Source of the DNA: an uncultured Actinomycetes bacterium
Lineage (GTDB): Bacteria; Actinomycetota; Thermoleophilia; UBA2241
NCBI GenBank assembly: GCA_963725665.1
Contig: CAVRZA010000002.1
Location: forward strand, 448,001-512,000
DNA length: 64,000 bases
Direction: 5' to 3'
Under the pieces are notes generated by a model. The model saw only the letters and a list, made by a program, of their open reading frames with translations, ran no database searches and was not told where the DNA came from. The stretch's first letter is position 1. Each line of letters opens with the position of its first letter. A program made the position numbers and the translations under genes. Below are positions 22,519-64,000 of this stretch, in pieces.

Positions 22519-23000
22519 CGGCGTCACCTCCCTTCTCTTTCTAGTGTTTCGAGGACTATCCGCACTCATGTCAGTGTCACCTCCTCTCTTCACGGCGGAA
22601 GAGAAGTCGTGGCGAGGACCCTCGGAACGGGCCCTCGACCCCGTGAGCAGACGTGCAGGGGAGCCGTTCCCAAGAACGGGTTCGGCCGCACCCGATGCGG
22701 CTCTCTGGGAGTGTGATCGATGAGAAAGGACGTGAGAGCTGCGGCTGCGCCGCGTTCCCGGCGATGAAGCGTACAAGCTGGCCCCCCAGTCCCTGTGGCT
22801 CGCGCCGGACCATGGCTCCGTGGATTCCGGCGAGAGAGGTATACCTGAATTCGAGCGCTGGGGCAATAAGAACCTCCGTTGTACACCGAGGCGCTTGAAA
22901 CCGGGACCGACTGCGTCTTCGCCTCCCGGTCGCAGCAGGGGACGGCGGTCAGGTGGGAGAACTCGAGGTCTCCGTCATGGCCCCGTCGCCCTGTGCGTGC

Positions 23001-42875: not shown

Positions 42876-43251
42876 GCGTCGACCGTCAGGTGGCCGGAGG
42901 AGAGGACCGTTACTGTGAGACCCCGGTCGTTGGCGGTCGCTCCCTTTCCGTGGATGACGTTGATGCGCCAGCGTCCATCGACGTCCCCTGGGCCATCCGG
43001 CCTGTGTCGACTACGGTGATGCACGTAGACCGTGCGGTCAAAGGCTCGCAGGATGGCAGGAGAGGTGACTGAGGGCGGACTGTCCACCGTACACTCGCAA
43101 GCGCGCGCGACGAAGGCGACCGAACGACGGACGCCGACTCGTTCGTCGCTTCGGTCGCCGCGGAGAAGATCGACGCGGGACTGCGGGCGGCACTCGCAGG
43201 ATAGGGCATCCCGGCGGCGGCGCCGACACCATGTGGACTGCAGTCCAGGGG

Positions 43252-44194
43252 TCATGGGCTCCGAATGACCGACCGGATGAACGTCCGCACGTGCGCGTTG
43301 AACTCCTGGGCGCCTCCACGTTCGCCGAGTGACCCACGCCCTCAATGACCACAAGCTGCGACGAGGGGATCCGTTGATTGAGTTCGTTGGCGACCTTCAG
43401 CGGCGATCGCTGATCGAGTTCTCCGTACAGCAGGAGCGTGGGAACCTCGATCCGGGGAAGGACGTCTCGGAGGTCCGCCTCCGCCATCGAGTGCGCCATC
43501 GCCCGGTATCCGCCGGGCTTCCGGCTGCCCGTGTTGTCCGCCCACATGACTGTCAGCTCTTCAAGCAGACCCGAGGGGGCACCGGCGCTGAGCACCCCGG
43601 GGAATGCCTCGAGCACCTCCTCGAGTGGCAGGTCGGCGGCAGCGAGGACGCCCTCAAGGCGTGCCGCAGTCTCTTCGGGGGAGAGGGAGCCCGCCCATCC
43701 TGCATAGGCCGAGGCCAGGATGAGCGATGCGGGCACATGCGGATGCCGCCGGTACAGCTCGAGCGCCACGGAGCTTCCCCAGGAGAGGCCAAGGACGTGC
43801 GGGCGTTCGATCCCTGTGGCACTGACACGACGCAGCGTCGCCGCCGGTACAGCTCAAGCGCCACGGAGCTTCCCCAGGAAAGGCCGAGGACGTGTGGGCG
43901 TTCGATCCCTGTGGCGCGGAGCCACGACGCCAGCGCGTCCGCATACTCGGGCATACGCCAACTCTCCGGCACATCGGAGGAGCGGCCGCAGCCGGGTGCG
44001 TCCCAGGCCAGCACGGTGAACTCGTCCGCGAGGCCGTCTACCTGCCGGCGCCACGAGCGGCTGTCCTCCATGCCGCCATGGAGCAGGACGAGCGGCGGGC
44101 CGTCGCCGGCCTGCGTGTAGGCGATCCGCAGGTCGCCGAGTTGCAGCTCTCTCAATGCCTGTGCCTCCGCGCTGGACTCATGGATTGTTCCCAA
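43252..44194 (-). pseudogene. alpha/beta hydrolase disrupted by internal duplication and a frameshift
   Basis: LLHGG, WDAPGCGRS, GLSWG nucleophile motif, GELD, GHSAN; 76-bp duplication shifts the frame; further shift near 43305. Confidence 0.75.
43745..43915. repeat. 76-bp direct repeat (43745-43820 and 43840-43915)
   Basis: 4 mismatches, all synonymous in the hydrolase frame. Confidence 0.9.
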
Positions 44195-45929: not shown

Positions 45930-47315
45930 GTGGAGGCCAGGATCCCGACCCGCATGGGCGACGGCTCGCTGGTCGAGATGACACGCAGCGAGCTGAAAGC
46001 CGACCTCGAGGCGGGCACGCAGATCGCCGCCAAGAGAGCCAAGGTCCCCGAGCTCGCGCAGGACGAGCTCGACCACCTGCTCGACATCTACGCCTCGCCG
46101 GCACGCTTCACGGCCGTCGACATCGGCGACGAGGTCGTGATGACCAACGACGGCACCGGCAGCAAGCACATCGGTAACCGGGTGTCCGACCTGCAAGCCT
46201 ACGAGGCGCTGCTCGGCATCGACATCGTCGAGCTCTGGCAGATCGACTACTCCTACAAGGCGGTCAAGACCAACGTCGCCCACGAGGGGCAGTCGATGAA
46301 GATCGCCCAGATGCTCTGCACCAACCCCGTGCAGTACGGCGCCATGCCCGACCTGGGACGCTACTCCAAGCCCGACGGACCCATCGACAACTGGTCGGAG
46401 CTCCTGCCGCAGGGGAAGATCGACGAGGCGAGGGCGGCTCAGGAAGCGGCCGAGGGGATGCTCGTCGGCGACATCATGTTCGTTGCCGACCACATGGTCG
46501 AGGCGGGGACCGACGGCATCGACATGGACACGACTGGCGCCGCCGGCGACGCCGACTTCCGGGCCGCGCTCACCGCCTGCCGCAAGCTGCGCGAGAAGTA
46601 CCCCTGGCTGGGCATCGAGATCGGCATGGCGGCCGAGTTCGTGCTCGGCATGCACGGCAAGTTGACCTTCGACGGCGAGACCTTGGCCGGCATGTGGCCC
46701 AAGGACCAGGTGCGCATGGTCCAGCGGGCGGGGGCGAGCATCTACGGCCCCGCCGTCAACATCAACACCGGCAAGTCGACGGCTTGGAACATCGCCCGCG
46801 CCATCACCCTGATCAAGCCCGCCATGGAGGTCGCCGAGATCCCCGTGCACGTCAACGTGGGTATGGGCGTCGGCGGTGTGCCGACCTGCGTCTATCCACC
46901 CGCCGACGCCACCTCGCGGGCGTCGAAGGCCTTCGTCGACATCCTCAAGATCGACGGCTACTAGGTGGGTACGGGCGACCCCCTCGGCATGGAGTCTGCC
47001 CACACGCAGGCTTCGGGCATGGGCGGGATGCGAGCGGCCGGAGATCTGGTCGCACGCATGCAGATGACCCGGAGGATGCGTCTAGAGGAGGCCAAGCGGT
47101 ACGTGGCCGACAAGCTCGGTGTCACCCCGCGTGACCTCTCCGATCCGGTGGCGATGGAGACCGTCAGGCTTGAGAAGGGGCTGGGCACGTTGGCCTTCAC
47201 CTCGTCGGTGCACCCCGACGAGCCGGGCATGATCGAGGCCAAGTTCAACATCGCCGAGCTGCTCGACATCCCCATCAACTGCGTCGAGCGCTTCAAGGCA
47301 CGCGCGCACCTCTAG
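45930..47315 (+). CDS. mtbB: Dimethylamine:corrinoid methyltransferase MtbB-family, paralog 1, in-frame TAG (46962-46964) read as pyrrolysine
   Basis: TRMGDG, DYSYKAVK, YGAMPDLG, DTTGAAGDADF, EFVLGMHG, GMGVGGVP, KIDGY-TAG-VGTGDPLGM..ASGMGGMRAAGDLVARM; GGAGGTGA RBS; 461 aa with read-through. Confidence 0.9.
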
Positions 47316-47375
47316 ACAGGAGAGTAGCGAGCGCGATCTGACCCCCCGTGGGGGATCTCGCCGCCGCCGCCGCTT

Positions 47376-48056
47376 CTATCCCGCGGCTCCCGGCATCCCC
47401 TCGTACCGCACCACCCGGTCGGGCTTGCCGCAGAATGTGAAGCTGTTGTTCATGTGGTCGCGTTCGTCGAGCCCGATGCGCCGGAACACGTCCGCCCAGT
47501 TCTCGAAGTCTCCGTACTTCGTCACCACCTCGCCGACGACCGGCTGCTCTTCCCATTCCGGGTGATCGCGGACCATCTGCGCGTACGTGTGCTCGGCGTG
47601 GTCCTCGAGCTCGGCGTTGAGCAGGAAGCCCCTGCGTGTGTCGAGCATCGCCATCGCCCAGGTCAACAGGGCGTACGAGCGGGCCATCAACCGCGGGAGC
47701 GGCGGGGATAGATACCACGGTTCCTTGGCGCCGTCCTGGCGCATCTTCTCTTCGATGACGAGCAGGTGCCGGTACTCGTTGTCCTCAGCCTCCCGCGCCC
47801 AAGCAAGGATCGCGGGAGCCTTGCCCACGAGCTCCTCGTCCCGATAGCGCTGCACGCTCGGGTACTGGCGGTTCTGCCACGCCTTGTACGGTACACCGGC
47901 CAGCGTCTCCACCAGCCTGGCCTTGGCGAGCGTCGCTTCGCTTCCCACCATCAGATCCATGCTCGAAAAGAAGAACCGCGCCAGGGCTGAGTACGGATAC
48001 CGCGGCCGTTCCAGTGAAGCCTGCTGTTCCTTCCTCAGATCGACAGTCATGGCCAT
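47376..48056 (-). CDS. Alternative-oxidase-like diiron protein
   Basis: ETLAGVP, DNEYRHL, EDHAEHTY, DERDH match the four AOX/PTOX iron-ligand segments. Confidence 0.72.
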   Translation of the reverse strand: MAMTVDLRKEQQASLERPRYPYSALARFFFSSMDLMVGSEATLAKARLVETLAGVPYKAWQNRQYPSVQRYRDEELVGKAPAILAWAREAEDNEYRHLLVIEEKMRQDGAKEPWYLSPPLPRLMARSYALLTWAMAMLDTRRGFLLNAELEDHAEHTYAQMVRDHPEWEEQPVVGEVVTKYGDFENWADVFRRIGLDERDHMNNSFTFCGKPDRVVRYEGMPGAAG

Positions 48057-48312
48057 CTCCTCTCGGCAGGAAGGCGGGAGACCCGCTTGTTCGGACAGCG
48101 CCACTTCTCGCGCAGAGCATAGCGTGATGACCGGCGGTCTGTCTCGTTGGAGTATCGTCGCAGGCCGCGCGGGGGCGCCGGCGGCGCCGCCTCGAGATCC
48201 TTCCGCGGTGACCCTGTCGGTGTATGTCCTCTGAGTATTGATGCGCCTCGCCCTTGTCCTATGTGCTTCTCGACGGCTAGAATGCGGCACTCGCGGGTTT
48301 GTCGAAAGGAGA

Positions 48313-49352
48313 ATGATGCGTTCGATTCCTAAGGTACTCTTTGTCGTTGTACTTGTGGCGGCGGTCGCCGCCGTCGGTCTCGCCGCCGGGTGCGGCAGTC
48401 GAGGCAACGTCCAGCAGTGCCTCGCCCAGCGCCGCCGCCAGCGTAGACAAGACCCAGGCGTTCAAGATCGGCATCAGCCAGTTCGTGACCCATCCGGCGC
48501 TCGATGCGACCGTCGAAGGCTTCAAGACCGCTCTGGCGGATGCCGGTTTCACCAACATCACCTACGACCTGCAGAACGCCCAGGCCGACATGCCGACCAC
48601 CTCGACGCATCGCGCAGAAGTTCGCCGGCGAGGGACCTCGATCTGATCCTCGGCGTCGCGACGCCGAGCTCGCAGGCGCTGGCCAAGGCCATCACGACGA
48701 CGCCCATCGTCTTCTCGGCGGTCACCGACCCGGTCGGCGCGGGGCTCGTCACGGACCCCGGCGCTCCCGACGCCAACGTGACCGGCGTCAGCGACATGCA
48801 GCCGGTGGAGCCGATCCTCGACCTCGTCAAGCAGCTCAAGCCCGACGCCAAGGCGGTCGGCGCCATCTACAACGCCGGCGAGTCGAACTCGGTCTTCCTC
48901 GTGAATGCCGAGAAGAAGTACGCGCCCTCGCTGGGTCTCGAGATCGTCGATGCCACCGCCGGCACGTCGGCTGAGGTGCAGGCCGCCGCCCAGTCGCTCA
49001 TCGGACGCGTCGATGCCATCACGGTCATCGGCGACAACATCGCCGTGACTCGGCGCTCGAGTCGATCGTCAAGGTCTGCAACGAGAACGACATCCTGCTG
49101 CTCGCCGGCGACCCCGACAGCGTCAAGCGTGGTGCCGCGGCGGGCTACGGTTTCGACTACACGACCGTGGGCAAGGAGGCTGGTATGGTGGCCGCGCAGA
49201 TCCTCAGCGGCACGCCGGTCGCGGACGTCCCGGTGGTGTTCGTCAAGGACAAGCCTGAGAACCTGCAGCTCTCGGTCAACGAGAAGGCAGCCAAGGCCCA
49301 GGGGGTCACCCTCCCCGCCGACCTGATCAGCCAGGCCGTCAACAAGTTCTGA
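48313..49352 (+). CDS. ABC substrate-binding lipoprotein (TrpX-like aromatic amino acid family), about 4 frameshifts
   Basis: LAAGC lipobox; IGISQFVTHPALD, ATPSSQA, FSAVTDPVGAGLV, TGVSD, YNAGESNS spread over different frames. Confidence 0.8.
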
Positions 49353-49454
49353 TCGACCGCGGCCCTCGCATGACATGAGGGCCGCGGACGAGGTAGTGTG
49401 CCGAGAGCCGGGGTCGTCACGACCCCGGCTCTCGGCGATCAGGAGACGGCATCC

Positions 49455-50357
49455 TTGGAGACCATCCTCACCAGCGCGCTCGGACAGGGGCTGCTGTACT
49501 GCTTCATGGTGCTGGGCGTCTTCATCACGTTCCGTGTGCTCGACTTCCCCGACCTCACGGTCGACGGGAGCTTGCCGCTCGGCGCGGCCGTCTCCGCGGC
49601 TCTCATCGTGAACGGACAGCCGCCGTGGCTGGCGACGCTCATAGGCGTCAGCGCCGGGGTGTGTGCCGGGCTCGCGACCGGCGGCCTGCACATCCTTCTC
49701 AAGTCGGGTGAGAGCGACAGCAACAACTACGGTCCCAAGCTGCTTGCCGGCATCCTCACGATGACGGCGCTCTACACGGTGAACCTGCGTGTGATGGGCC
49801 GCAGCAACACCCCCCTGCTGGGGATCGATACGGTCTTCGAGAAGCTCGCCGGAGTCCTCGCGACTCCGATCACGCCCTGGGTCCTGGTCGCGGTGCTGGC
49901 GGTGCTCATGGTCGCCGTGAAGTACCTGATCGACTGGTTCTTGCACACCGAGTTCGGTCTGTGCATGCAGGCGACCGGCGACAACGAGCAGATGATCCGC
50001 GCCACGGGCACGAACACCGACCTGATGCGTGTCATCGGCCTGGGTGTGGCCAACGGCCTGGTCGCGCTCAGCGGTGCTCTGGTCGCCCAGCAGCAGGGCT
50101 TCGCCGACGTCGGCATGGGCATCGGTACCATCGTCGCCGGCCTCGCCGGCGTGATCATCGGCGAGGTCCTCTTCGGCGCCAGGAGCATCAGTTGGGTGCT
50201 CTTCAGCGTGGTCGGCGGGTCCATCGTCTACCGGCTGCTGATCGCCGTCAGCCTGCGCTTCGGCATCGCGCCCACCGACCTGAAGCTGCTCACCGCCGTC
50301 CTCGTCGTCGCGGCGCTGTCGATCCCGACGGTGCGCAGCAAGGTGGTGCGCGTGTGA
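49455..50357 (+). CDS. ABC transporter permease
   Basis: FPDLTVDGSLPLG, LLAGILTM, GFADVGMGIGTIV. Confidence 0.92.
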   Translation: METILTSALGQGLLYCFMVLGVFITFRVLDFPDLTVDGSLPLGAAVSAALIVNGQPPWLATLIGVSAGVCAGLATGGLHILLKSGESDSNNYGPKLLAGILTMTALYTVNLRVMGRSNTPLLGIDTVFEKLAGVLATPITPWVLVAVLAVLMVAVKYLIDWFLHTEFGLCMQATGDNEQMIRATGTNTDLMRVIGLGVANGLVALSGALVAQQQGFADVGMGIGTIVAGLAGVIIGEVLFGARSISWVLFSVVGGSIVYRLLIAVSLRFGIAPTDLKLLTAVLVVAALSIPTVRSKVVRV

Positions 50358-51163
50358 GCGCCCCCGCCACACTCACGCTGCGCGGCGCGCGCAAGGTGTT
50401 CTTCCCCGGCACCGTCAATGAGGTGGAAGCGCTCGCCGGGATCGACCTCGACGTGCCCGCGGGTCAGTTCGTGAGCATCATCGGCTCCAACGGGTCGGGC
50501 AAGTCGACCCTGCTCAACGCTATCGCCGGCACCTTCCGCCTCACTTCCGGGAGGGTCCTGCTGGACGAAAGGGACGTGTCACGGCAGCCTGAACACGTTC
50601 GCAGCCGGTCGATCGGGAGGGTGTTCCAGGACCCGCGCGCCGGTACGGCGCCGTCCATGACGATCGAGGAGAACATCGCCATCTCACTCCTGCGCTCGCG
50701 GCGCAGCGGGCTGCGGCGGGGCGTGACGAACTCCCGGCGGGCGGTCATGAGGAAGCAGTTGACGCCGTTGCACATGGGCCTCGAGCAGCGGCTGGGAGCG
50801 CAGGTGCTCAAGCTGTCTGGCGGGCAGCGGCAGGCCCTGTCGCTGCTCATGGCGACGATCGCCGAGCCCAGCCTGTTGTTGCTCGACGAGCACACGGCGG
50901 CTCTCGACCCCAAGGTGGCGGCGACGATCATGGACCTCACGGAGGCCATCGTCGTCGAGCGCGGCCTGACGACGCTCATGGTCACGCACAACATGGACCT
51001 CGCGCTGCGCTACGGCGACCGGCTGATGATGATGCACGCCGGGCGCGTCGTGCTCGACATCGACCGCGCTCAGAAGGAGATCCTGACGGTAGCTGACCTC
51101 GTCGCCAAGTTCCACGACGTCGCCGGCGAGGCGCTCGCCGTCGACCGTCTCCTGCTCGACTGA
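50354..51163 (+). CDS. ABC transporter ATP-binding protein
   Basis: GSNGSGKST, VFQDP, LSGGQRQ, LLLDEHTAALDP. Confidence 0.94.
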   Translation: MSAPATLTLRGARKVFFPGTVNEVEALAGIDLDVPAGQFVSIIGSNGSGKSTLLNAIAGTFRLTSGRVLLDERDVSRQPEHVRSRSIGRVFQDPRAGTAPSMTIEENIAISLLRSRRSGLRRGVTNSRRAVMRKQLTPLHMGLEQRLGAQVLKLSGGQRQALSLLMATIAEPSLLLLDEHTAALDPKVAATIMDLTEAIVVERGLTTLMVTHNMDLALRYGDRLMMMHAGRVVLDIDRAQKEILTVADLVAKFHDVAGEALAVDRLLLD

Positions 51164-51247
51164 TACCCGCCCTGGTGATCTCGTTGCTCGTGCCTGCGCG
51201 GCCGCGTGAGGAGCCCTTCGCGCGGCCGGCCGGGACGTCCGGCCGAG

Positions 51248-52743
51248 TCAGCTCCGGAGCTCGCGATCGGCGGCTTCGAGGATCGCTGTCGAGCTCTCTC
51301 GCCTTGTCGTCGGCGAGCGGCTCCGGCCGGTAGCGCTGCAGGATCTCGATGCCGCGCTCGCGCGCGACCTCGAGAGGATCCCGGTAGCGGCCCGTCGACT
51401 CCAGTTCGTGCGCCAGGCCGCGCATCATCGCCGCCGGCATGTGGGCGCGCGTGTGACGGTGTCGCCAGGTAGTGCCCGCCCGGCCCGACGTCATCGACGA
51501 CCTCCAGCGCGAGCTCGTCATCGTCGACGGGGATGTCGAGCACCCCGAAGCGCACGCGATGGTAGAGCTCGTCGTCGAGGACCATCTTCTCGGGACTGAA
51601 GAGGGTGTAGGTCTTGGAGAGGCCGATGGCCGTGAACGTCTCGGCCCTGTCGAGCGCCGCGAAGGTGAGCGGGTGGAGCTCTTCCATGGTCGACTGCCAG
51701 GAGTCGGTGGCCACGGCGTCGGTACCGCCGTAGCCGGCCATCGTCGGCAGCCCCACGTGGTGCATCAACTCGGTGGGGAGGAAGAACCCTCGGCTGTCGA
51801 GCGGGAAGCTCACCGTCGCACCGGTGCGCGGGTCGGCGTACACCTGGAAGATGGCGCCCAGGACCGGTGCTCCGGGGTGGGCGAGCTGGAGGACGACGGC
51901 GCCGGCGACGACCTCGGCGAGGCCGAGAGCGTAGGCCCCGGCCTTCGTCGCCGGCGCCGTCGTGCCCAGCGTAGGCATGCTCACGAAGCACACCGGCACG
52001 CCGGCTTCGGCGAAGACCAGCGCCGCCTCGATGCCGTCGCGGTCGAGGACCAGGGGCGAGACGGTGCCGATGAGATTCGACAACACCGGCTTGGCGCGCA
52101 ACGCCTCGCGGCCGCCGGCGACGACCTCGGCCATGGCGACCGCGTGCCGCGCGTGCCGCTTGCCCTGCACCATGCCCTGAAGATGCTTGACCGTGTTGTT
52201 CCAGCCGGCGTCGAGCTCGTGGAGCTGAGCGGTCTGCCCGCAGTCACCGGCGCCGACTGTCGGCCACCAGAAGCAGATCGAGCCGAGGTAGTCCTGCATG
52301 CGCGTGACCTCGGCGACGTCTGCCTTGGTCGAGAGGCGGCGCTCGCCGGTCATCCAGTCGATGACCTCGATGCCGCAGCCGTCGGTCGTGCCGTAGGAGT
52401 AGCCGCTCGCCAGGTCGAGGTCGCAGGAACCGTCGCGCGAGCCGAACCAGAACGAGCGCGGCGCTGTGGCCAGCGCGCGTGAGACGAGCTCGGCCGGCAG
52501 CCTCGCCGTCTCACGCGCGCCGTCGACCACGGCGCCGCGCTCGGCGAGCAGGCGCAGCGTGTCGGGCGAGAGAACCTTCACGCCGGTCCTCTCGAGAATA
52601 TCGAAGGCCGCCGTCGCCAGACGATCGAGCTGTTGCGGTGTGTGCATGCTCAAGGCGAAATCGCTGCGCAGCGGCGCCAGCGGCTGGCGGCGCATATCTT
52701 CTTGCGCTCCTTGCACCACGTCTTGTGACTCTGGCTGTGTCAT
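51248..52743 (-). CDS. MttB-superfamily (trimethylamine methyltransferase-like) non-pyrrolysine member; frameshifts near 51465 and 51288
   Basis: ILERTGV, LATAP, VSPL, LGTTAPAT, GLPTMAGYGGTDA, SPEKMVLDDE, VGPGGHYL; no TAG in the region where MttB carries Pyl. Confidence 0.85.
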
Positions 52744-53170
52744 CCGCTCGGGCTCCCTGCTGTCGGTGCGTCGCACCACGCCGCGAAGGAGTCTAGCATC
52801 TCGGCGAACGAGTCGGTCAGCCAAGACCGCGTGCCTGTTCGGGAGGTCGGGTGGTTCATCGCGATCCGCTTCGTCGCGCGGTCCTTGTCCCGGCGACTCC
52901 GAGCGCGACCTCGGCGTTCGCTTGTCTTCGGTGAGCCAGCCAGGCAATACTTGCGCGGATGCGACGAGCGCTCCCCGGATGCGAGCCCGAGCACTGGTTA
53001 GACTGAGGTACGGCAGTCCGGGAACAGAGCCGGGCGATGATTGCAGTGCGATGACGCATCCGTCTTAATGAAGAGGATGGGGCAGAGGCTGTGCCGGCCT
53101 GGACCGGCACCGACGCGAGTGGTACGGGTCCCGGCTCGAAAGGGCCGGGCCACCAAGGGGGTGGCAGTAG

Positions 53171-54379
53171 ATGCACGACGACCGTGACGTCGGCCTGGGG
53201 CCGGCCGAGCAAGCAGAGCGCCTGGCGCAAGAGGTATGCGAGGGGCGGCTCAGCCGACGTGAGTTCATCACACGTGCCGCGGCGCTGGGCCTGGGAGTGT
53301 CGGCCATCGGGACTCTCCTGGCTGCTTGCGGTACGACCTCGAACTCCAGCGCGACCGCCAGCGCGTCGCCGGCGGCGATGGACACGACGCTCCCTAAGAA
53401 GCTCTACATCTACAACTGGAGCGACTACTCCTCGCAGCAGGTCTACGACGACTTCAAGAAGCAGTACGGCATCACGGTCGTGGAGAGCTTCTACGACGGC
53501 AACGAGACCCTGAACACCAAGCTGAGGGCCGGCGCCGGCGGCTACGACGTGGTGTTCCCGACCGACAAGTGGGTGAGCATCAACGCCAAAAGTGGCCTCA
53601 TCCAGCCGCTGAACATGAGCCTGATCCCCAACTTCGCCAAGTACGTCACCCAGCCGCTCTTCAAGGCGCCGCCGTTCGACGACCCTGCCAAGCAGGGCGG
53701 CAAGAAGTACTCGGTGCCCTACATGTTCGGCACGACCGGCATCGGCATCCGGCGCGACAAGGTGCCGAGCGTCGACTCCCTCGACTCCTGGGCCATCATG
53801 TGGGACGCGGCGTGGAAGCGGGACATCTCAATGCTTGACGAGCCTGTCGAGTGCGTCAACGCTGCCCTCATGTACCTGGGGTATCCGGCCAACTCGACCG
53901 ACCAGAGCCAGATCGACGCCGCCATCAACAAGCTCATCGAGCAGAAGCCCCTGGTGGTGCAGTACACCTCGACCGTCGACAAGCGCGAGATGATCCAGGG
54001 CGTGCCGCTGGTGCACTGCTGGGACGGCGACGCGGCGGCGGCCATGAAGGACATCGGACAGGCGAAGCTGCGCTACATGCTGCCCAAGGAAGGATTCATG
54101 CTGTGGATGGACGGCATCGCCATCCCCGCGACGGCGCCCAGCCCCTACGCCGCGCACCTCTTCCTCAACTTCATCCTCGATCCGGTGAACGCCGGGGCGG
54201 CGGCCACCTACATCGGTTATCAGCCGGCCGTCGAGGCGGCCATGCAGTACATCACCGACCCCGTGCAGAAGGCGATGCGGCCGACGCCCGAGCTCCTCGA
54301 CAAGGGCCAGCTGCCCAAGGACCTGGGCGCCTTCGAGCAGATGTACCAGGACGCCTGGGCCAAGGTGAAGAGCTCCTGA
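53171..54379 (+). CDS. PotD/PotF-type polyamine ABC binding protein, Tat lipoprotein
   Basis: SRREF twin-arginine, LLAAC lipobox, YNWSDY, GYDVVFP, PYMFGTTGI, WDGD, PKEG. Confidence 0.9.
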   Translation: MHDDRDVGLGPAEQAERLAQEVCEGRLSRREFITRAAALGLGVSAIGTLLAACGTTSNSSATASASPAAMDTTLPKKLYIYNWSDYSSQQVYDDFKKQYGITVVESFYDGNETLNTKLRAGAGGYDVVFPTDKWVSINAKSGLIQPLNMSLIPNFAKYVTQPLFKAPPFDDPAKQGGKKYSVPYMFGTTGIGIRRDKVPSVDSLDSWAIMWDAAWKRDISMLDEPVECVNAALMYLGYPANSTDQSQIDAAINKLIEQKPLVVQYTSTVDKREMIQGVPLVHCWDGDAAAAMKDIGQAKLRYMLPKEGFMLWMDGIAIPATAPSPYAAHLFLNFILDPVNAGAAATYIGYQPAVEAAMQYITDPVQKAMRPTPELLDKGQLPKDLGAFEQMYQDAWAKVKSS

Positions 54380-54553
54380 ACCGAGATCGGCGCCAGGGGT
54401 GAGAGCGTGGGGCGGCGCCGGCCGCTGCGGGCGAGTGAGTCTCGCCCGCAGCGGCCGGCGCCGCCCCCTTTGGTAGCATTGCAGAGCCCGGGTCGCCGGC
54501 TGGCCCAGGCGCCCGGCGAGCGACAATCGCGACCTCGAGGGGGTGGTTGCACG

Positions 54554-55951
54554 GTGGAACCGACGATCCCGACACGCATGGGCGACGGCTCCTTCGCCCA
54601 TCTGACGCGCAGCGAGATCGAAGCCGAGCTCGAAGCGGGCACCCAGGCCGCGGTCAAGCGCGCCAAAGTGCCGCCGCTGACACAGGATGAGCTCAACCAC
54701 CTGCTTGACATCTACGCGTCCCCAGCCCGCTTCACGGGGGTCGATGTGGGCGACGAGGTGGTCCTGAGTTGCGACGGCACCGGCATGAAGACGCACGCCA
54801 CGCGCACCCAGGACCTGCAGGCCTACGAGCAGTGGATGGGTGCCGACCTGCTGGAGCTCTGCGTGGGCGACTACTCGCTCAAGGTGGTGCGCACGATCAT
54901 GCCCTATGAGGCCCAGGTCATGCATGACGCGCTGCTCGCCACCGTGGCTCCGCTGCAGTACGGCGTCATGCCCAACCTGGGCCTCTACTCCAAGCCCGAC
55001 GGCCCCTGCGAGAACTGGTCCACGCTGCTCCCCGAAGCACGCATCGCCGAGGCGCGCGCCGCCGAGGAGGAAGCGGCCGCGATGGCGACCGACGACATGG
55101 TGCGCCTCGCCGAATCGCAGGTCGAGGCCGGCGCCGACGCCATCGACTGGGACACGACGGCTGCCTCGGGCGACCCCGAGTTCTACGCCACGCTCAAGGC
55201 GACCGAGATCATCCGCAAGCGCTACCCGGACTTCGGCGTGCAGCTCGGCATGGCCGCCGAGTTCGTCCTCGGCATGCACGGCGAGCTGACCTACGACGGG
55301 GTGCGCCTGGCTGGCCTCTGGCCGCGCGAGCAACTGCTCGTGGCGCAGAAGGCGGGGGTGACGATGTTCGGCCCCGTGGTCAACGTCAACACCGGCAAGA
55401 GCGCCGCCTGGAACGTGGCCCGCGCCTGCACGCTGGTGAAGCCCTGCATGGACGTGGCCGAGATCCCCGTGCACATGAACGCCGGCATGGGCGTCGGCGG
55501 CGTGCCCATGTTCGTACACCCGCCGGGCGATGCCGTCTGCCGCGCCGCCAAGGCCTTCGTCGACGTCCTGCGCTTGGACGGCTTGTAGGTAGGCTCGGGC
55601 GATCCCCACGGGATGCACAACGCCCACGCTCAGGCTGCGGGCATGGGCGGTATGCGAGCCGGCGGAGACCTGGTGGCTCGGATGCAGATGACCCGCGGCA
55701 TGAGACTCAAGGAGGCAAAGGCCTACGTGGCCGAGAAGCTGGGTGTGACGCCCTTCGACCTCTCCGACCCCGTCGTCATGACGGAGGTGCGCAGCGAGCT
55801 GGGCTTCGGGCGTATCCACTCCTACGCCATCAGCCAGCCCTGGCAGGCCAACATGATCGAGGCCAAGTTCAACATCGCCCGTGTGCTCGACATCCCCATC
55901 AACTGTGTCGAGCAGTTCAAGCGGCGCACGAGCCAGGAGGTGCAGACGTGA
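54554..55951 (+). CDS. mtbB: MtbB-family methyltransferase paralog 2, in-frame TAG (55586-55588) read as pyrrolysine
   Basis: Same motifs as paralog 1; RLDGL-TAG-VGSGDPHGM..AAGMGGMRAGGDLVARM; 465 aa with read-through. Confidence 0.9.
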
Positions 55952-57361
55952 GCACGGCGGGCGAGAACAGGATCCCCACTCGCATGGGCGACGGCGGGCT
56001 CGTCGAGCTGACGCGCAGCGAGCTGCGGGCGGAGATCGAGGAGGGAACGCAGGCGGCGGCCAAACGGGCAAAGGTACCGCCGCTGACCGAGGATGAGCTG
56101 GCGCACCTGCTCGACATCTTCGCCTCAGCGGCGGCCTTCGTATCGGTCGAGCAGGGGGACCAGCTCATCCTCTCCTGCGACGGTACCGGCAGCCAGATCG
56201 CCAGCTCCCGTCTCGAGGACCTGCGCGAGTGGGAGGCGACCCTGGGCTCGGACTTGGTCGAGCTCTACCACGTCGACTACTCCTACAAGGCGATCAAGAC
56301 GATCCGCCACGTCGAGCAGCAGGCAATGCGCAACGTGCAGCTGCTGCTCACCGTGCCCGTGCAGTACGGGGCGATGCCCAACCTCGGGCTCTACTCATGG
56401 CCCGACGGCCCCGTCCCGAACTGGTCCGAGCTCATGCCTCAGGGCAGGATCGAGGAGGCGCGCGCGGCGCAGGAGGAGGCCGTCGAGATGGCGGTCGAGG
56501 ACATGGTCTTCGTCGGCGAGGGCATGTGGGAAGCCGGCGCCGACGGGATCGACTTCGATACCGCCGGCGCCGCCGGCGACGCCGACTTCCTGGCCACGCT
56601 GCGCGCCGTGGAGGAGCTGCGCCGCCGCTGTCCCGACATCGGCATAGAGCTCGGCATGGCCGCCGAGTTCGTGCTCGGCATGCACGGCGAGCTGAGCTAC
56701 GACGGCGTCCGCCTCGCCGGCCTGTGGCCCAAGGACCAAGCCAGGCTGGCGGCCAAAGCCGGGGCGACCATGTTCGGCCCCGCCATCAACGTCAACACCG
56801 GCAAGACCGTCGCCTGGAACACGGCGCGTGCCCTGACGATCGTCAAGCCCTGCTGTCAGGAGTCGACCATCCCCGTGCACATGAACGTCGGGATGGGCGT
56901 CGGCGGGGTGCCGATGACCCCGTTCCCGCCCGCCGACGCCGTCTCGCGCGTGGCCACGGCCTGCCGTGAGGTCGGCCGCCTCGACGGGTTGTAGGTGGGC
57001 ATCGGCGACGCTGTGGGCATGCACAGCGCGCACGTGCACGCCGCGGGCATGGGCGGTATGAGGGCTGCCGGAGACCTGGTGGCCCGCATGCAAATGACTC
57101 GCGGCATGCGCCTGACGGAGGCGAAGGGGCACGTGGCAGGCTAAGCTCGGCGTCGGCGTGCGCGATCTCTCCGATCCCTACATCATGACCGACCTGCGCG
57201 GCGAGCTCGGCCTGGGCAGGGTGCCCGAGCACGACACCTTCCGCGTCGACGAGCCGGCGGCCATCGAGGCCAAGTTCCATATCGCCGAGCTGCTCGACGT
57301 GCCGGTCAACTCGGTCGCGCGCTTCAAGGAGCGCACGGCGGAGGGCTGGAGGCGCGCCTAG
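55948..57361 (+). CDS. mtbB: MtbB-family methyltransferase paralog 3, in-frame TAG (56992-56994); extra-base frameshift near 57139
   Basis: RLDGL-TAG-VGIGDAVGM..AAGMGGMRAAGDLVARM; homologous C-terminus (KLGV..DLSDP..IEAKFHIAELLDVPVNSV) continues in the +1 frame; GTGA-coupled to paralog 2. Confidence 0.85.
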
Positions 57362-57570
57362 GGAAGGGGGCCGGGCGGGGCCGAGACCATCTTCTGCCCG
57401 CTCTTGGCCGCCGTTTACGTTGCCGCAGCCGCCTTTTGGCTGTACCATGCGAAATGCCGGAGCTTGTGAACCGAGGCTCAAAACACCCGGCAGAGCGCGG
57501 GCGGACGCGGTGTCCGGCGGCGCCGGCAAGACGAGAACCCATCCAGACGAGAAAGTAGGCTCTCAGGATC

Positions 57571-58122
57571 ATGCTCACCGTCATCGACGACGCCGCGATC
57601 GACGAGACCCTGGCGGCGATCAAGGAGGAGTCGGGGGAGGACCCGCGGCTCTGCTACCAGTGCGGTAAGTGCAGCGCGGGCTGCCCCGTGCACGCCTGGT
57701 TCGACCTGCCGCCGAACAAGGTGCTGCACCTGCTTCAGTTGGGGCGCTTCGAGGAGGTCCTCACCTCGCGCACGGCGCAGCTCTGCGCCTCGTGCTACGC
57801 GTGCAGCATGCGCTGCCCCAAGGAGATCGACATCGGCCGCCTCATCGACACCGCGCGCAACATCTGCCACAAGCGCGGCCTCGTGCCCGTCGACGGCCGC
57901 GCGAAGACCTTCCACCGTACTTTCCTCAAGAACGTCCGCCGTCACGGGCGGCTCAACGAGCTCGAATTGGCGGCCTTCCACAACCTCGCACAGGGCAAGC
58001 CCTTCAGCGACGCCGACATCGCCCCGAAGCTGTTCTTCAAGGGCAAGCTACACATCGGGCTCGGCGGCCGCGCCGATGGCGAGATAGGGCGCATCTTCGA
58101 GAAGACGGTGGGCAGGCTATGA
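57571..58122 (+). CDS. hdrC: Heterodisulfide reductase subunit C-like ferredoxin
   Basis: CYQCGKCSAGCP and CASCYACSMRCP; HGRLNE. Confidence 0.9.
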   Translation: MLTVIDDAAIDETLAAIKEESGEDPRLCYQCGKCSAGCPVHAWFDLPPNKVLHLLQLGRFEEVLTSRTAQLCASCYACSMRCPKEIDIGRLIDTARNICHKRGLVPVDGRAKTFHRTFLKNVRRHGRLNELELAAFHNLAQGKPFSDADIAPKLFFKGKLHIGLGGRADGEIGRIFEKTVGRL

Positions 58123-59039
58123 GCCCGGAGGAAGCAGTGCTGACGCGCGACGACGAGGCGACACCCGCCGTCACGCAGCGTACCTGGGCCTACTACCCCG
58201 GCTGCTCGCTGGAATCGTCGTCGCGGGATTTCGATCTCTCCTCGCGTGCGGTCCTGACCGCCCTTGGCGCGGACCTCGTCGAGCTGGAGGGATGGGCGTG
58301 CTGCGGCGGCTCCTCCGCGCACCAGGTCGACCATACCCTGGGCGTGGCCCTGCCGGCGCGCAATCTGCGGCTGGCTGAGGAGCTTGGGCTCGACGTCGTC
58401 ATGCCGTGCCCCGCCTGCTCGGCGCGGCATCTCGCCGCCAACTTCGAGCTGGGCGATCCCGTGCGAGCCGAGCGCATCAACGTCGTTCTCGACAAGCCGG
58501 CCGCCGGCAGTTCGCGCGTGTTGAACATCCTCGAGGCGCTCGACGAGGCCACGCGCGAGCTTCCCGCAGGTGTCTTGCGCACCCGCGTCGATCTCAAGGT
58601 GGTGCCCTACTACGGCTGCCTGCTCACCCGGCCGTGCGCTGGGGTCAGCTACGACGATCCCGAAGATCCGGTCACCATGGACCGTCTGGCCGAGATGGTT
58701 GGCGCGACGGTGTTGCCCTGGAGCTTCAAGACCGAGTGCTGCGGCGCCTCGCTCTCGTTCTTCGAGAAGGACGCCGTGCTCGTGAACTCCGCCAAGCTGC
58801 TCGACATGGCCGCGCAGGCGGGCGCTCAAGCCATCGTCACGGCCTGCCCCTTGTGCCACCAGAACCTCGACTTGCGCCAGGCGCAGCTCGAGAAGCGCGA
58901 GGGCAAGAAGTTCGGCATGCCCGTCTACTACGTGACCGAGCTGCTGGGCCTCGCGCTCGGCTTGACGCCCCAGGAGCTCGGCATCGACCTGCACGCCGTC
59001 GAGGCCGTCGAGCCGCTGCGCGGCGCGCTCGCCGTCTGA
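58119..59039 (+). CDS. hdrB: Heterodisulfide reductase subunit B-like (CCG domains)
   Basis: YYPGCSL, WACCG, YYGCLL, KTECCG, ACPLCHQNLD. Confidence 0.92.
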   Translation: MSPEEAVLTRDDEATPAVTQRTWAYYPGCSLESSSRDFDLSSRAVLTALGADLVELEGWACCGGSSAHQVDHTLGVALPARNLRLAEELGLDVVMPCPACSARHLAANFELGDPVRAERINVVLDKPAAGSSRVLNILEALDEATRELPAGVLRTRVDLKVVPYYGCLLTRPCAGVSYDDPEDPVTMDRLAEMVGATVLPWSFKTECCGASLSFFEKDAVLVNSAKLLDMAAQAGAQAIVTACPLCHQNLDLRQAQLEKREGKKFGMPVYYVTELLGLALGLTPQELGIDLHAVEAVEPLRGALAV

Positions 59040-61167: not shown

Positions 61168-62544
61168 CTACTGCCCGAGGAGTCTGTCGATGAGCGCGGC
61201 GCGGCGGGCGGGCCGACCGATGCCGCTCTCGACCCGGTCCGCGTGCGCCATCAGCTTGAAGGCGCCGTTGATGCCCAGCCAGCGCAGCGGTTCCCGCTCC
61301 CAGTTGGGCGACCTGTGGCCGACCCAGGGAAGCGTGGTGATGTCGGACTCCCGTCCGGTGATCAGGTCGGCGAGCGTCCTGCCTGAGAGGTTCGCGGTGG
61401 CCACGCCGTCGCCGGCGTAGCCGCCCGCCCAGGCGAAGTTGCGCTCACGCTCGTAGCCCACGGTGGAGAAGAGGTCGCGCGGCCAGCCCAGCGGGCCGCC
61501 CCATGAGTGCGTGATGCGCGCTGCGCCGATGGCGGGGAAGAGAAGCCGCAGCGTGCGCTCGTGGCTGTCGATCACTCCGGGCACGCGGTCGTAGGCGTCA
61601 TCTATGCGGGAGTTGTAGTGGTAGGGCGCGCCGCGGCCGCCCATGGCGATGCGGTCGTCGTGCGTGCGCGAGAGGTAGATCAGCAGATGCCGCCCGTCGT
61701 TGAAGCACTCGCGGCCCTCCCAGCCGATCTCGTCCCAGACCTCCTTGGGCAGCGGCTCGGTGCAGATCATGAGCGAGTAGATGGGGGCGAGGGTGTCGTG
61801 TTGGCCGGGCAGCTGAACGGTGTAGGCCTCGGTGGCGCGCACGACGACCTCGGCCTTGACGCGGCCGAGCGGTGTGCTGGCGATGCCGCCCTCGATCGAC
61901 GTCACGGGCGTCTGCTCGTAGACCGTCACGCCGAGCTTCTCCACCGTCTCCGCCAGGCCGCGGGCGAGGCGCGCCGGCTGAACGCAGGCGCAGTGCGGAC
62001 TGTAGCGGCCGCCGAGGCAGCCCGTGACGTCGAGCCGACGGCGCGCCTCGACCGCGTCGAGCCACACCCAGTCGGGCTCGCCGAAGCCCCACGACGTGTA
62101 GTACTCCTGCTCTTCCCGTAGGGGCTGCAGTTGGGCCGGGGTGATGGCCAGGTTCAAGACGCCGCCCTTGTGGAACTGGGCATCGATGCCCTCCTCGGCG
62201 CACGCCCGTCCGACCTCGTCGACGGTGTCGAACATCGTCCGCTGCATGCGGATGGCCTCGCCGCGGCTGCTCGCCGCAGCGAGCTTCTCGAGAGAGGCCG
62301 CGAAGTAGGCCGAGCACCAGCCACCGTTGCGTCCCGAGGCGCCGTAGCCGGCGATCTCCCTCTCGAGGACGACGATGCGCAGCTTGGGGTCGGCTTTGGC
62401 GAGGTAGTAGGCGGCCCAGAGCCCTGTGTAGCCGGCTCCGACGATGCAGACGTCGGCGTCGACGTCGCCGGGGAGGCTCGGCCGTGGGCTCAGCTCCCCG
62501 GGTACATCGTCGAGCCAGAAGCTGGTTGTGCGGTAGTCTCTCAT
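61168..62544 (-). CDS. FAD-dependent amine oxidoreductase (PuuB/DadA family)
   Basis: GAGYTGLW, GASGRNGG, QPARLARGL, WGGPLG, GGYAGDGV. Confidence 0.9.
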   Translation of the reverse strand: MRDYRTTSFWLDDVPGELSPRPSLPGDVDADVCIVGAGYTGLWAAYYLAKADPKLRIVVLEREIAGYGASGRNGGWCSAYFAASLEKLAAASSRGEAIRMQRTMFDTVDEVGRACAEEGIDAQFHKGGVLNLAITPAQLQPLREEQEYYTSWGFGEPDWVWLDAVEARRRLDVTGCLGGRYSPHCACVQPARLARGLAETVEKLGVTVYEQTPVTSIEGGIASTPLGRVKAEVVVRATEAYTVQLPGQHDTLAPIYSLMICTEPLPKEVWDEIGWEGRECFNDGRHLLIYLSRTHDDRIAMGGRGAPYHYNSRIDDAYDRVPGVIDSHERTLRLLFPAIGAARITHSWGGPLGWPRDLFSTVGYERERNFAWAGGYAGDGVATANLSGRTLADLITGRESDITTLPWVGHRSPNWEREPLRWLGINGAFKLMAHADRVESGIGRPARRAALIDRLLGQ

Positions 62545-62613
62545 GACGGGTACTCCCGGGTCGGGACTCATCGCTTCCGGGGAGCATCCTATCACTGTAA
62601 GAGGAGGGAGCGG

Positions 62614-63346
62614 GTGATCGGCCGAGCCTGGCCGCGGACGGTGTGGGAGCTCGAGGATGAGCAGCGCGCGCTGGCCGTCGCGGCGGCGCGCGTTGCGCGC
62701 TGGCGTCCGGCCGACCTCGCCGCGGTGCGTGTGGCGGCCGTCTTCGCCACGTACCCGACGGGTCGCCCCGGCCCGGGTGAGGCGGGCGAGCCTGCCTGGG
62801 TTGGGGCGGCCCTCGTGCGCGCCGGCGCCCCGCACGAGGTGCTTGCCGAGGCCGCGCTGCGCGGCGAGACCGGCGCGCCCTACGTCGCGGGCCTGCTGGC
62901 GCTGCGCTGCGGGGCGCTCCTCGAGCGCGCCGTGGGCGCGCTCGAGGAGCGCCCCGACCTGCTTCTCGTCGACGCTACGGCCCGCGACCACCCGCGGCGC
63001 GCCGGTCTCGCCCTCCACCTGGGAGCCGTGCTCGATCTGCCGAGCCTCGGTGTCACCAACCGTCCTCTGCTGGCCGCCTGCGAGGAGCCGGGGCCGGAGC
63101 GCGGCGAGTCAGGCCTCCTCGTGCTCGACGGCGAGACGGTCGGCTGCTGCCTGCGCATGCGGGAGGGGTTCGAACCCTCTCGTCGTGCACCCCGGCTGGC
63201 GGGTCGACCTCGAGACCGCCTGCGCCCTCGTCCTGCTGCTGACACGCCGTCGCCGCACGCCGGAGCCGCTGCGCCGCGCGCGCACTCTGGCGCGCGTCCT
63301 GCGCGCGCGCGACGAGGGCCGCTACCCCGGAGAAGGCGTAGAGTAG
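62614..63346 (+). CDS. nfi: Endonuclease V-like protein (frameshift near 63178)
   Basis: PYVAGLLALR, LVDATARDHPRRAGLALHLG, PEPLRRA. Confidence 0.75.
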
Positions 63347-63350
63347 GCGC

Positions 63351-64000
63351 ATGCCGGCCGCAGCAGACGTGCCCGATTCGCCTTCCTCGACTGGCCGCGA
63401 CCACGGTGGAGCCGACTGGGGCGAGCCTGAGGCCATTCGGTCCGCCGCGGACCGCTTCCCCAAGATCGAGCTGCACGTGCACCTCGAGGGCAGCGTGCGT
63501 CCCGCCACGCTCCTAGAGATCGCGCGGCGCAACGGCGAGAGCCTACCGGCCGACAGCGTCGAGGGTCTGCGCGAGCTCTTCACGTTCACGGGCTTCGAGC
63601 ACTTCATCCAGGTCTGGATCGTGACCACCTTCGTTCTGCAGCGGGCGCGCGACTTCCGCCAGATCACCGTCGACTACGCCGCCGAGGCCGCGGCACAGGG
63701 CTGTGTCTACATCGAAGGCATCTTCTCGCCGGCGGAACCGGTCGTCCGCGGCGTCTCGTGGGAGGAGATCTTCGAGGGCTACTGCGACGGCATCCAGGAG
63801 GCGCGCGAGCGCCACGGTGTCGAGATGCGCCTCACGCCCGACATCACGCGGGTCTTCGACCCGGAGCTCGGCGAGGAGACGGCGCAGCACGCCGTCGCCT
63901 ACCGAGAGCGGGGCGTTGTCGGCATAGGGCTCGGCGGGCCCGAAGACCCGCCGGAGCCGTTCGCGAGCGCCTTCGCCGTCGCACACGAGGGAGGTCTCGG
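63351..64000 (+). CDS. add: Adenosine deaminase (3'-truncated by window edge)
   Basis: PKIELHVHLEGS, YIEGIFSP, VVGIGLGGPE; frame open to window end. Confidence 0.9.
   Translation, partial: MPAAADVPDSPSSTGRDHGGADWGEPEAIRSAADRFPKIELHVHLEGSVRPATLLEIARRNGESLPADSVEGLRELFTFTGFEHFIQVWIVTTFVLQRARDFRQITVDYAAEAAAQGCVYIEGIFSPAEPVVRGVSWEEIFEGYCDGIQEARERHGVEMRLTPDITRVFDPELGEETAQHAVAYRERGVVGIGLGGPEDPPEPFASAFAVAHEGGL

Follow-up and report, generated by a model that had tools for sequence, protein, structure and literature searches.

Three mtbB genes with an in-frame amber codon, and probable pyrrolysine decoding, in an uncultured actinobacterium that also ends genes with UAG

The stretch of DNA analysed here (the window; 64,000 nucleotides, positions 448,001 to 512,000 of contig CAVRZA010000002.1 in assembly GCA_963725665.1) contains three mtbB genes, each with a single in-frame TAG codon (Table 1). 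The N-terminal open reading frames (ORFs) obtained with translation table 11 match the Pfam family PF09505 (Dimeth_Pyl) with 403.6, 389.1 and 423.6 bits for genes 1, 2 and 3, respectively (cut-off 25), and cover profile positions 4 to 352/353 of 463. Because each match ends at 352/353, all three ORFs stop at one common profile position. When the TAG is read through, genes 1 and 2 score 431 and 430 bits against TIGR02368, the NCBI equivalog model for dimethylamine:corrinoid methyltransferase (cut-off 369.1), and gene 3, which lies in two frames in this assembly, scores 408.4 bits over its first 398 aa, also above the cut-off, and 25.6 bits over its last 74 aa.

A preliminary description of this DNA, made from the letters alone, had placed a TAG at one homologous codon in three paralogues (46962, 55586 and 56992) in the context DG[Y/L]-TAG-VG[T/S/I]GD, and the positions, the frame and all three contexts are as it gave them. 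Its count of about 115 conserved codons downstream holds for genes 1 and 2, where 116 and 120 conserved codons follow the TAG and the C-terminal parts are intact, but not for gene 3, where only 49 are in frame. It also missed both the frameshift responsible and the fact that two of the three genes end in TAG. Orthologues of gene 1 are found at 82-87% identity in metagenome-assembled genomes (MAGs) titled Thermoleophilia, and those of gene 2 at about 80-83% identity. Twelve loci, ten of which contain gene 2 orthologues, were searched over 3 kb for an orthologue of gene 3, and none was present; the best match to gene 3 was 68-71% identical. Gene 3 thus looks like a lineage-specific tandem copy.

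Table 1. Coordinates of the mtbB genes, their associated features and the pyrrolysine genes. Positions are those of the window, which lies on contig C2; C6 is another contig of the same genome bin.
Feature	Position	Strand	Details
mtbB gene 1	45930..47315	+	461 codons; TAG terminator 47313-47315; translated with TAG as O
mtbB gene 2	54554..55951	+	465 codons; TGA stop
mtbB gene 3	55948..57361	+	GTG start overlapping the gene 2 TGA; TAG terminator 57359-57361; two frames in this assembly
In-frame UAG of gene 1, proposed pyrrolysine codon	46962..46964	+	residue 345; context DGY-TAG-VGTGD
In-frame UAG of gene 2, proposed pyrrolysine codon	55586..55588	+	residue 345; context DGL-TAG-VGSGD
In-frame UAG of gene 3, proposed pyrrolysine codon	56992..56994	+	residue 349; context DGL-TAG-VGIGD
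PYLIS_2 match, gene 1	46962..47061	+	68.7 bits, model 1-100
PYLIS_2 match, gene 2	55586..55685	+	71.8 bits
PYLIS_2 match, gene 3	56992..57091	+	60.7 bits
3' hairpin, +73 to +92 after each TAG	47034-47053, 55658-55677, 57064-57083	+	formed by the codons for AAGDLVA
Surplus base shifting the gene 3 frame	57139..57142	+	contigs of 4/4 runs lack one base
ABC transporter (BMP-family binding protein, permease, ATPase)	48238..51163	+	PF04392, PF02653, PF00005
MttB-family gene without in-frame TAG (non-pyrrolysine type)	51070..52947	-	PF06253 181.4 bits, profile 24-428 of 500
PotD/PotF-like solute-binding protein, just upstream of gene 2	53171..54379	+	PF13416; PotD model 183 bits, below cut-off
pylSc	C6 296347-297081	+	TIGR02367 314.6 bits, cut-off 178.15
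pylSn	C6 298938-299198	-	TIGR03912 119.9 bits, cut-off 51.15
pylB	C6 345979-347001	-	448.3 bits, cut-off 348.2
pylC	C6 344775-345908	-	338.7 bits, cut-off 248.3
pylD	C6 343844-344635	-	211.6 bits, cut-off 150.05
tRNA-Pyl(cta) (pylT)	C6 343702-343774	-	ARAGORN; CUA anticodon

Matches to the Rfam family RF02509 (PYLIS_2, 'Pyrrolysine insertion sequence mtbB'; gathering score 36) start exactly on each TAG in the window, and in the printed alignment model positions 1-3, which are UAG, are aligned onto the three TAGs, though a large share of the PYLIS_2 score can come from conserved coding sequence. The TAG thus falls where the preliminary description had proposed to look for it, on the pyrrolysine (Pyl) site of MtbB, in proteins that pass the TIGR02368 cut-off. 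In Methanosarcina barkeri MtbB the pyrrolysine is reportedly residue 356. No sequence relative was found in the PDB, and no methanogen-titled record is among the 80 closest loci, which were collected in one scan of genome contigs and are referred to below as the related loci. A review describes the amber position as conserved inside each methyltransferase class (PMC2933860).

Every one of the 80 related loci contains one or more MtbB genes in which the homologous codon is TAG; this gives 87 instances, none with a sense codon in that place. The genome that includes the window has eight MtbB genes with exactly one TAG each, and each of the 150 MtbB matches listed for 40 genomes of its family likewise has one. 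Since 8/8 genes of the genome have one TAG and 87/87 related instances have TAG at this codon, a chance origin of the three TAGs is excluded, in keeping with the earlier argument that independent nonsense mutations or sequencing errors would not recur at one codon.

For the region downstream of the TAG, gene 1 was aligned with ten orthologues; two of the alignments contained indels and were not used, which left eight that are gap-free. All eight show a preference for third-position substitutions beyond the TAG, just as they do ahead of it; locus L020, for example, has 13, 11 and 44 substitutions at the first, second and third positions downstream of the TAG, compared with 28, 27 and 92 upstream. 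Hence, the downstream frame is translated, and it is under purifying selection. It might still be argued that the TAGs are true stops and that the genes are split or decaying, with only the N-terminal products of about 344 aa being made, as calling with table 11 yields truncated products like nearly all of the database entries listed, and TAG is a working terminator in a genome that has release factor 1 (RF1). However, a TAG in 87/87 instances over 80 loci, 116 downstream codons that stay in frame with third-position-biased substitutions, and the presence of the full pyrrolysine machinery (see below) make this highly improbable. The short database entries have the form that would be expected if gene callers stop at the TAG: 119 of the 120 database relatives listed cover no more than 74% of the query and most are 336-349 aa long, which bears out the earlier remark that standard annotation breaks these genes. 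The sole full-length entry among the 120 (P0084, 468 aa) has Q at the TAG position and may be a variant without pyrrolysine or a gene call made under another code.

In gene 3, the 49 in-frame codons after the TAG are followed by a TAA at 57142-57144, and the last 74 conserved codons are in the +1 frame (57137-57361). Logan contigs from four DNA runs belonging to two studies were aligned over 55500-57450, and in all four runs (X1 to X4) the contigs have one base fewer than the window, at 57139 in X1 and X2, 57141 in X4 and 57142 in X3. Apart from this base, the nearest contig (X1 record 7) differs from the window twice in 175 bases. Among the runs listed for this DNA, none was an RNA run. As the contigs of 4/4 runs are one base short here, the window holds one extra base at 57139-57142, and related MtbB genes cross this point in a single frame. 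The surplus base is probably an assembly error, and the organism itself most probably has an undamaged gene 3. The possibility that gene 3 is an ancient pseudogene was considered and rejected in favour of an assembly indel, as the base is missing from the contigs of all four runs. Further genes in the window are split between frames, namely those for an alpha/beta hydrolase (43041-44194), an endonuclease V (62131-63513) and the BMP-family binding protein (48238-49323), and the MttB-like gene at 51070-52947 is either split in the same way or has lost the end of its profile match. These split genes fit single-base indel errors of long-read assembly.

The genome bin is a metagenome assembly of 3.73 Mb in 12 contigs, with an estimated completeness of 97.5% and an estimated contamination of 5.04%. 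A search of the whole genome for pyl genes, which the preliminary description had proposed as a check, recovered pylSc, pylSn, pylB, pylC, pylD and tRNA-Pyl(CUA), the protein matches all above their cut-offs. The tRNA has the long, 6-bp anticodon stem and the tiny variable loop that are typical for tRNA-Pyl, and its gene is contiguous with pylB, pylC and pylD. The pylSc and pylSn genes lie about 47 kb from this group (C6:296212-299291), with a corrinoid protein gene and a radical SAM gene between them; the corrinoid protein is of the Pyl type (TIGR02370, 223 bits). One in-frame TAG is also present in 6 of the 31 MttB-family matches and in 1 of the 6 MtmB-family matches of the genome, and together with the eight MtbB genes this makes about 15 Pyl genes. 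A tRNA-Sec(tca) is predicted at C11:550041-550138, so that the 21st amino acid may be in use alongside the 22nd.

Records titled Thermoleophilia, Actinomycetes or Actinomycetota account for 76 of the 80 related loci, the remaining four being titled as two delta-proteobacterial, one alpha-proteobacterial and one Dehalococcoidales. This agrees with the earlier impression of an actinobacterium-like genome, and the organism is most probably an uncultured anaerobic actinobacterium of the class Thermoleophilia. PylSc was detected in 5/5 named relatives tested. In a sample of 401 genomes of the class (E <= 1e-30), it was found in 73 of 79 genomes of the organism's own family, in 9 of 61 of a second family and in none of the 260 others. 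MtbB (E <= 1e-100) was found in 38 of the 40 genomes of the family that are at least 90% complete, with 1 to 11 matches each. The pyrrolysine trait is therefore common to the whole uncultured family, and eight MtbB copies are typical there.

How UAG is otherwise used was assessed with a rough gene set of 2452 ORFs with coding-like composition, in which TAG is the terminator of 928 (38%), TGA of 1384 and TAA of 140. The G+C content at the three codon positions (GC1/GC2/GC3), 0.71/0.50/0.89 within these ORFs, drops to 0.69/0.69/0.71 past the TAG ends, and does the same past TGA and TAA. The gene for RF1, prfA, is present (489.9 bits, above cut-off). Genes 1 and 3 themselves contain TAG both as the internal, presumed pyrrolysine codon and as their own terminator, and two of the MtbB paralogues outside the window clade likewise end in TAG. 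With about 38% of likely genes ending in TAG, and with RF1 present, UAG is not reassigned genome-wide; its decoding is ambiguous, with two meanings. A code in which each TAG is a sense codon exists in some archaea (Kivenson et al. 2025, as cited in PMC13695967), and the roughly 15 genes with an in-frame TAG could be taken to point to such a reassignment here. However, 928 of 2452 ORFs end in TAG, the coding pattern collapses past these ends as it does past TGA and TAA, and prfA scores above its cut-off, so that we give this explanation almost no credence.

The question is then how efficient pyrrolysine insertion is obtained at chosen sites when more than a third of genes end in UAG and RF1 is kept. 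The structure of Rfam PYLIS_2 was counted over 100 segments downstream of UAG. Pairing holds in only 60.5% of cells for its 5' helix (helix 1), most of which is unpaired in the gene 1 copy; this stem is not retained in these genes and was set aside as a candidate signal. For the 3' hairpin (helix 2, +73 to +92) the figure is 90.8%. Most of this hairpin is fixed by the invariant peptide AAGDLVA, but the wobble positions +75 and +90 covary, being paired in 90 of the 100 sequences versus 47.3 +/- 4.2 in shuffles. On a tree of the upstream protein, there are only 4-5 independent wobble switches, about 4 of them compensatory and none opposite (sign test, p about 0.125), and the covariation is no more than suggestive. 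In this lineage UAG would serve both as the second commonest terminator and, in about 15 genes, as a sense codon. That the 3' hairpin acts as an mRNA element which helps to tell the two apart, favouring pyrrolysine over termination at the mtbB UAG, is an idea that we regard as doubtful. If true, it would be the first supported pyrrolysine recoding signal in bacteria.

We consider it very probable, from the sequence evidence, that the products of the three genes are pyrrolysine-dependent methylamine:corrinoid methyltransferases of the MtbB (dimethylamine) family, made by reading the UAG with tRNA-Pyl(CUA). The proposal that this bacterium decodes UAG as pyrrolysine had been made in the preliminary description, and the position of the TAG and the full pyl gene set in one assembly speak for it. 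A split pyrrolysyl-tRNA synthetase (PylRS), made up of PylSc and PylSn, would charge tRNA-Pyl with pyrrolysine formed by PylB, PylC and PylD, and the charged tRNA would read the single in-frame UAG of each mtbB mRNA to give a full-length protein of about 461-470 aa. Because UAG remains a common terminator read by RF1, insertion would have to compete with termination. By analogy with the family, amine uptake would be followed by pyrrolysine-assisted methyl transfer to a corrinoid protein and onward transfer towards the acetyl-CoA pathway. The methylamine (dimethylamine or a related amine) would be bound by the pyrrolysine side chain, which would offer the methyl group to the Co(I) of a small corrinoid protein whose gene lies in another part of the genome. 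A RamA-type activase would hold the corrinoid reduced, and the methyl group would then be handed by a methyltransferase of the MtaA/MtbA type to what is probably the acetyl-CoA synthase pathway. B12-binding domains are matched 27 times in the genome, once beside an MtbB paralogue outside the window clade and once between pylSc and pylSn, and there are also two matches to RACo_C_ter (two RamA-type activases), an MtaA/MtbA-like URO-D gene adjoining a corrinoid gene, and a match to CdhC/AcsB (acetyl-CoA synthase).

Several points weigh against this interpretation. The equivalence of the TAG with the pyrrolysine of M. barkeri is drawn from the curated models of Rfam, NCBIfam and Pfam rather than from a direct alignment. 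UAG ends two of the three genes in the window as well as 38% of likely genes, and efficient suppression would lengthen many proteins. The pyl genes are on contig C6 and the window is on C2, in a bin with the contamination given above, so that they are connected through the binning and through the pattern seen across the family. Finally, the window clade is only 49-51% identical to the four classical MtbB paralogues of the genome, the window genes score about 430 bits on TIGR02368 versus 561 for the sole classical paralogue scored (L001), some 130 lower, and there is no match to a B12-binding (corrinoid, mtbC-type) protein in the window or beside the fourth gene of the clade.

The third of these points raises the possibility that the Pyl genes on C6 come from another organism than the window contig, as might happen with a bin that was assembled from a metagenome and whose 12 contigs have an estimated contamination of 5.04%. 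Against this, the G+C content of the two contigs is equal (0.684 for C2 and 0.680 for C6), TAG-bearing MtbB genes are found on C1, C2, C3 and C4, PylSc is present in 73/79 and MtbB in 38/40 genomes of the family, and a corrinoid gene of the Pyl type sits between pylSc and pylSn. A binning artefact is thus extremely unlikely.

The last point concerns the substrate. The three window copies form one clade, 62% identical among themselves, with a fourth MtbB gene that has one in-frame TAG and lies about 550 bases beyond the window end (C2:512550-513908 of this genome, G000). Given the divergence of this clade, its lower TIGR02368 scores and its lack of an adjoining corrinoid gene, unlike the classical MtbB at C3:259391 which does adjoin one, the substrate may not be dimethylamine. 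UAG would then still be pyrrolysine, with the clade having shifted to another methylated amine imported via the neighbouring ABC (ATP-binding cassette) transporter or binding proteins. The neighbours lend this some support. When the three transporter proteins were compared with the 80 related loci (tblastn), the BMP-family ABC transporter was found directly 3' of gene 1 orthologues in 11, and a binding protein 53-57% identical to the PotD-like product of 53171-54379 lies directly upstream of an MtbB gene, of another clade, in 5. However, all three proteins pass the equivalog cut-off for dimethylamine methyltransferase and have kept the Pyl codon and its conserved surroundings, and uptake systems are needed for small amines too. 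A change of substrate is therefore a possible but less likely explanation, and we retain dimethylamine or a related amine as the putative substrate of pyrrolysine-dependent MtbB enzymes.

Other genes lie in or near this part of the window. The MttB-family gene following the transporter is unmatched over the C-terminal part of the profile and reaches 235.9 bits on TIGR02369, below the cut-off of 525; non-Pyl MttB-family genes come after MtbB in several related loci. A 343-aa ORF of coding-like composition with no Pfam or NCBIfam match (47379-48407, minus strand) is between gene 1 and the transporter. Right after gene 3 is a pair of genes (57571-59036, plus strand) for an HdrC-like protein (4Fe-4S dicluster) and an HdrB-like protein (CCG domain), and no such pair was found adjoining MtbB in the 80 related loci. 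Further away, a large multihaem cytochrome c gene (20773-22866, minus strand) encodes Cytochrome_C7, paired CXXCH and MtrC/MtrF-like domains, which is unusual for an actinobacterium.

The preliminary description was too generous on novelty. A 2023 study of peat reports that Actinobacteriota MAGs of Stordalen Mire (genera Bog-752 and RBG-16-64-13) express Pyl-type mttB and mtbB (PMC10805028), and Guo et al. 2022 report PylRS in two Actinobacteria (PMC9630628). Pyl-type MtbB in this group is hence already known, and the window genes are a further example. A search of the literature joining pyrrolysine with Thermoleophilia, Actinobacteriota or Actinomycetota gave nothing more specific, the supplementary tables of these two papers, which may name the same lineages, being outside its scope, and no paper was found that joins Thermoleophilia, methylamine and corrinoid. 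Though knowledge of pyrrolysine as such is unchanged, the complete machinery and about 15 Pyl genes are together in one genome here, and the family, high in G+C and common in peat, soil and sediment, provides a well-documented case of a probable natural 22-amino-acid code. Because standard annotation truncates all of these genes, studies of carbon flow relevant to methane count too little methylamine use for these bacteria.

MtbB1 to MtbB3 of M. barkeri are reportedly dimethylamine:corrinoid methyltransferases (Paul et al. 2000, as cited in PMC2933860), and M. barkeri has three mtbB copies. The system described here resembles it in that the proteins belong to the same family above a curated cut-off, with one in-frame UAG at the conserved position of the family, in that there are several isozyme genes per genome, and in that the 100 bases after the UAG match PYLIS_2. 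It differs in having a bacterial, non-methanogenic host of 68% G+C, eight copies in two clades, window copies without an adjoining mtbC-type corrinoid gene, TAG as a frequent terminator and, presumably, a methyl acceptor other than coenzyme M.

Desulfitobacterium has a single pyl cluster, and the characterised Pyl bacteria mostly use MttB. In the actinobacterium, by contrast, some 47 kb separate pylSc and pylSn from pylBCD-pylT, and the weight is on MtbB (eight genes); the phylum, Actinomycetota, is also different from those of the bacteria with a split PylS. These include Desulfitobacterium hafniense, Acetohalobium arabaticum, Bilophila and the Olavius delta-1 symbiont, for which PMC9630628 and PMC1976440 are in part the source. 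Features in common with them are separate pylSn and pylSc genes, the presence of pylBCD and pylT, a UAG that still acts as a stop elsewhere in the genome, and large MttB-type families that mostly lack pyrrolysine.

A further counterpart is the group of Actinobacteriota MAGs from Stordalen Mire (PMC10805028), which show what is described here in broadly related organisms. The related loci include L067, from a record titled 'isolate bog_752', which has both an MtbB with TAG and PylSc. In the accessible text of PMC10805028, pyrrolysine was deduced from gene truncation together with expression, with no mention of pyl genes, TAG usage or copy numbers. The archaeal 'Pyl code' (Kivenson et al. 2025, as cited in PMC13695967) has the same heavy use of pyrrolysine in many Pyl genes, but there all TAG codons are pyrrolysine, whereas the actinobacterium retains RF1 and terminates about 38% of its likely genes with TAG.

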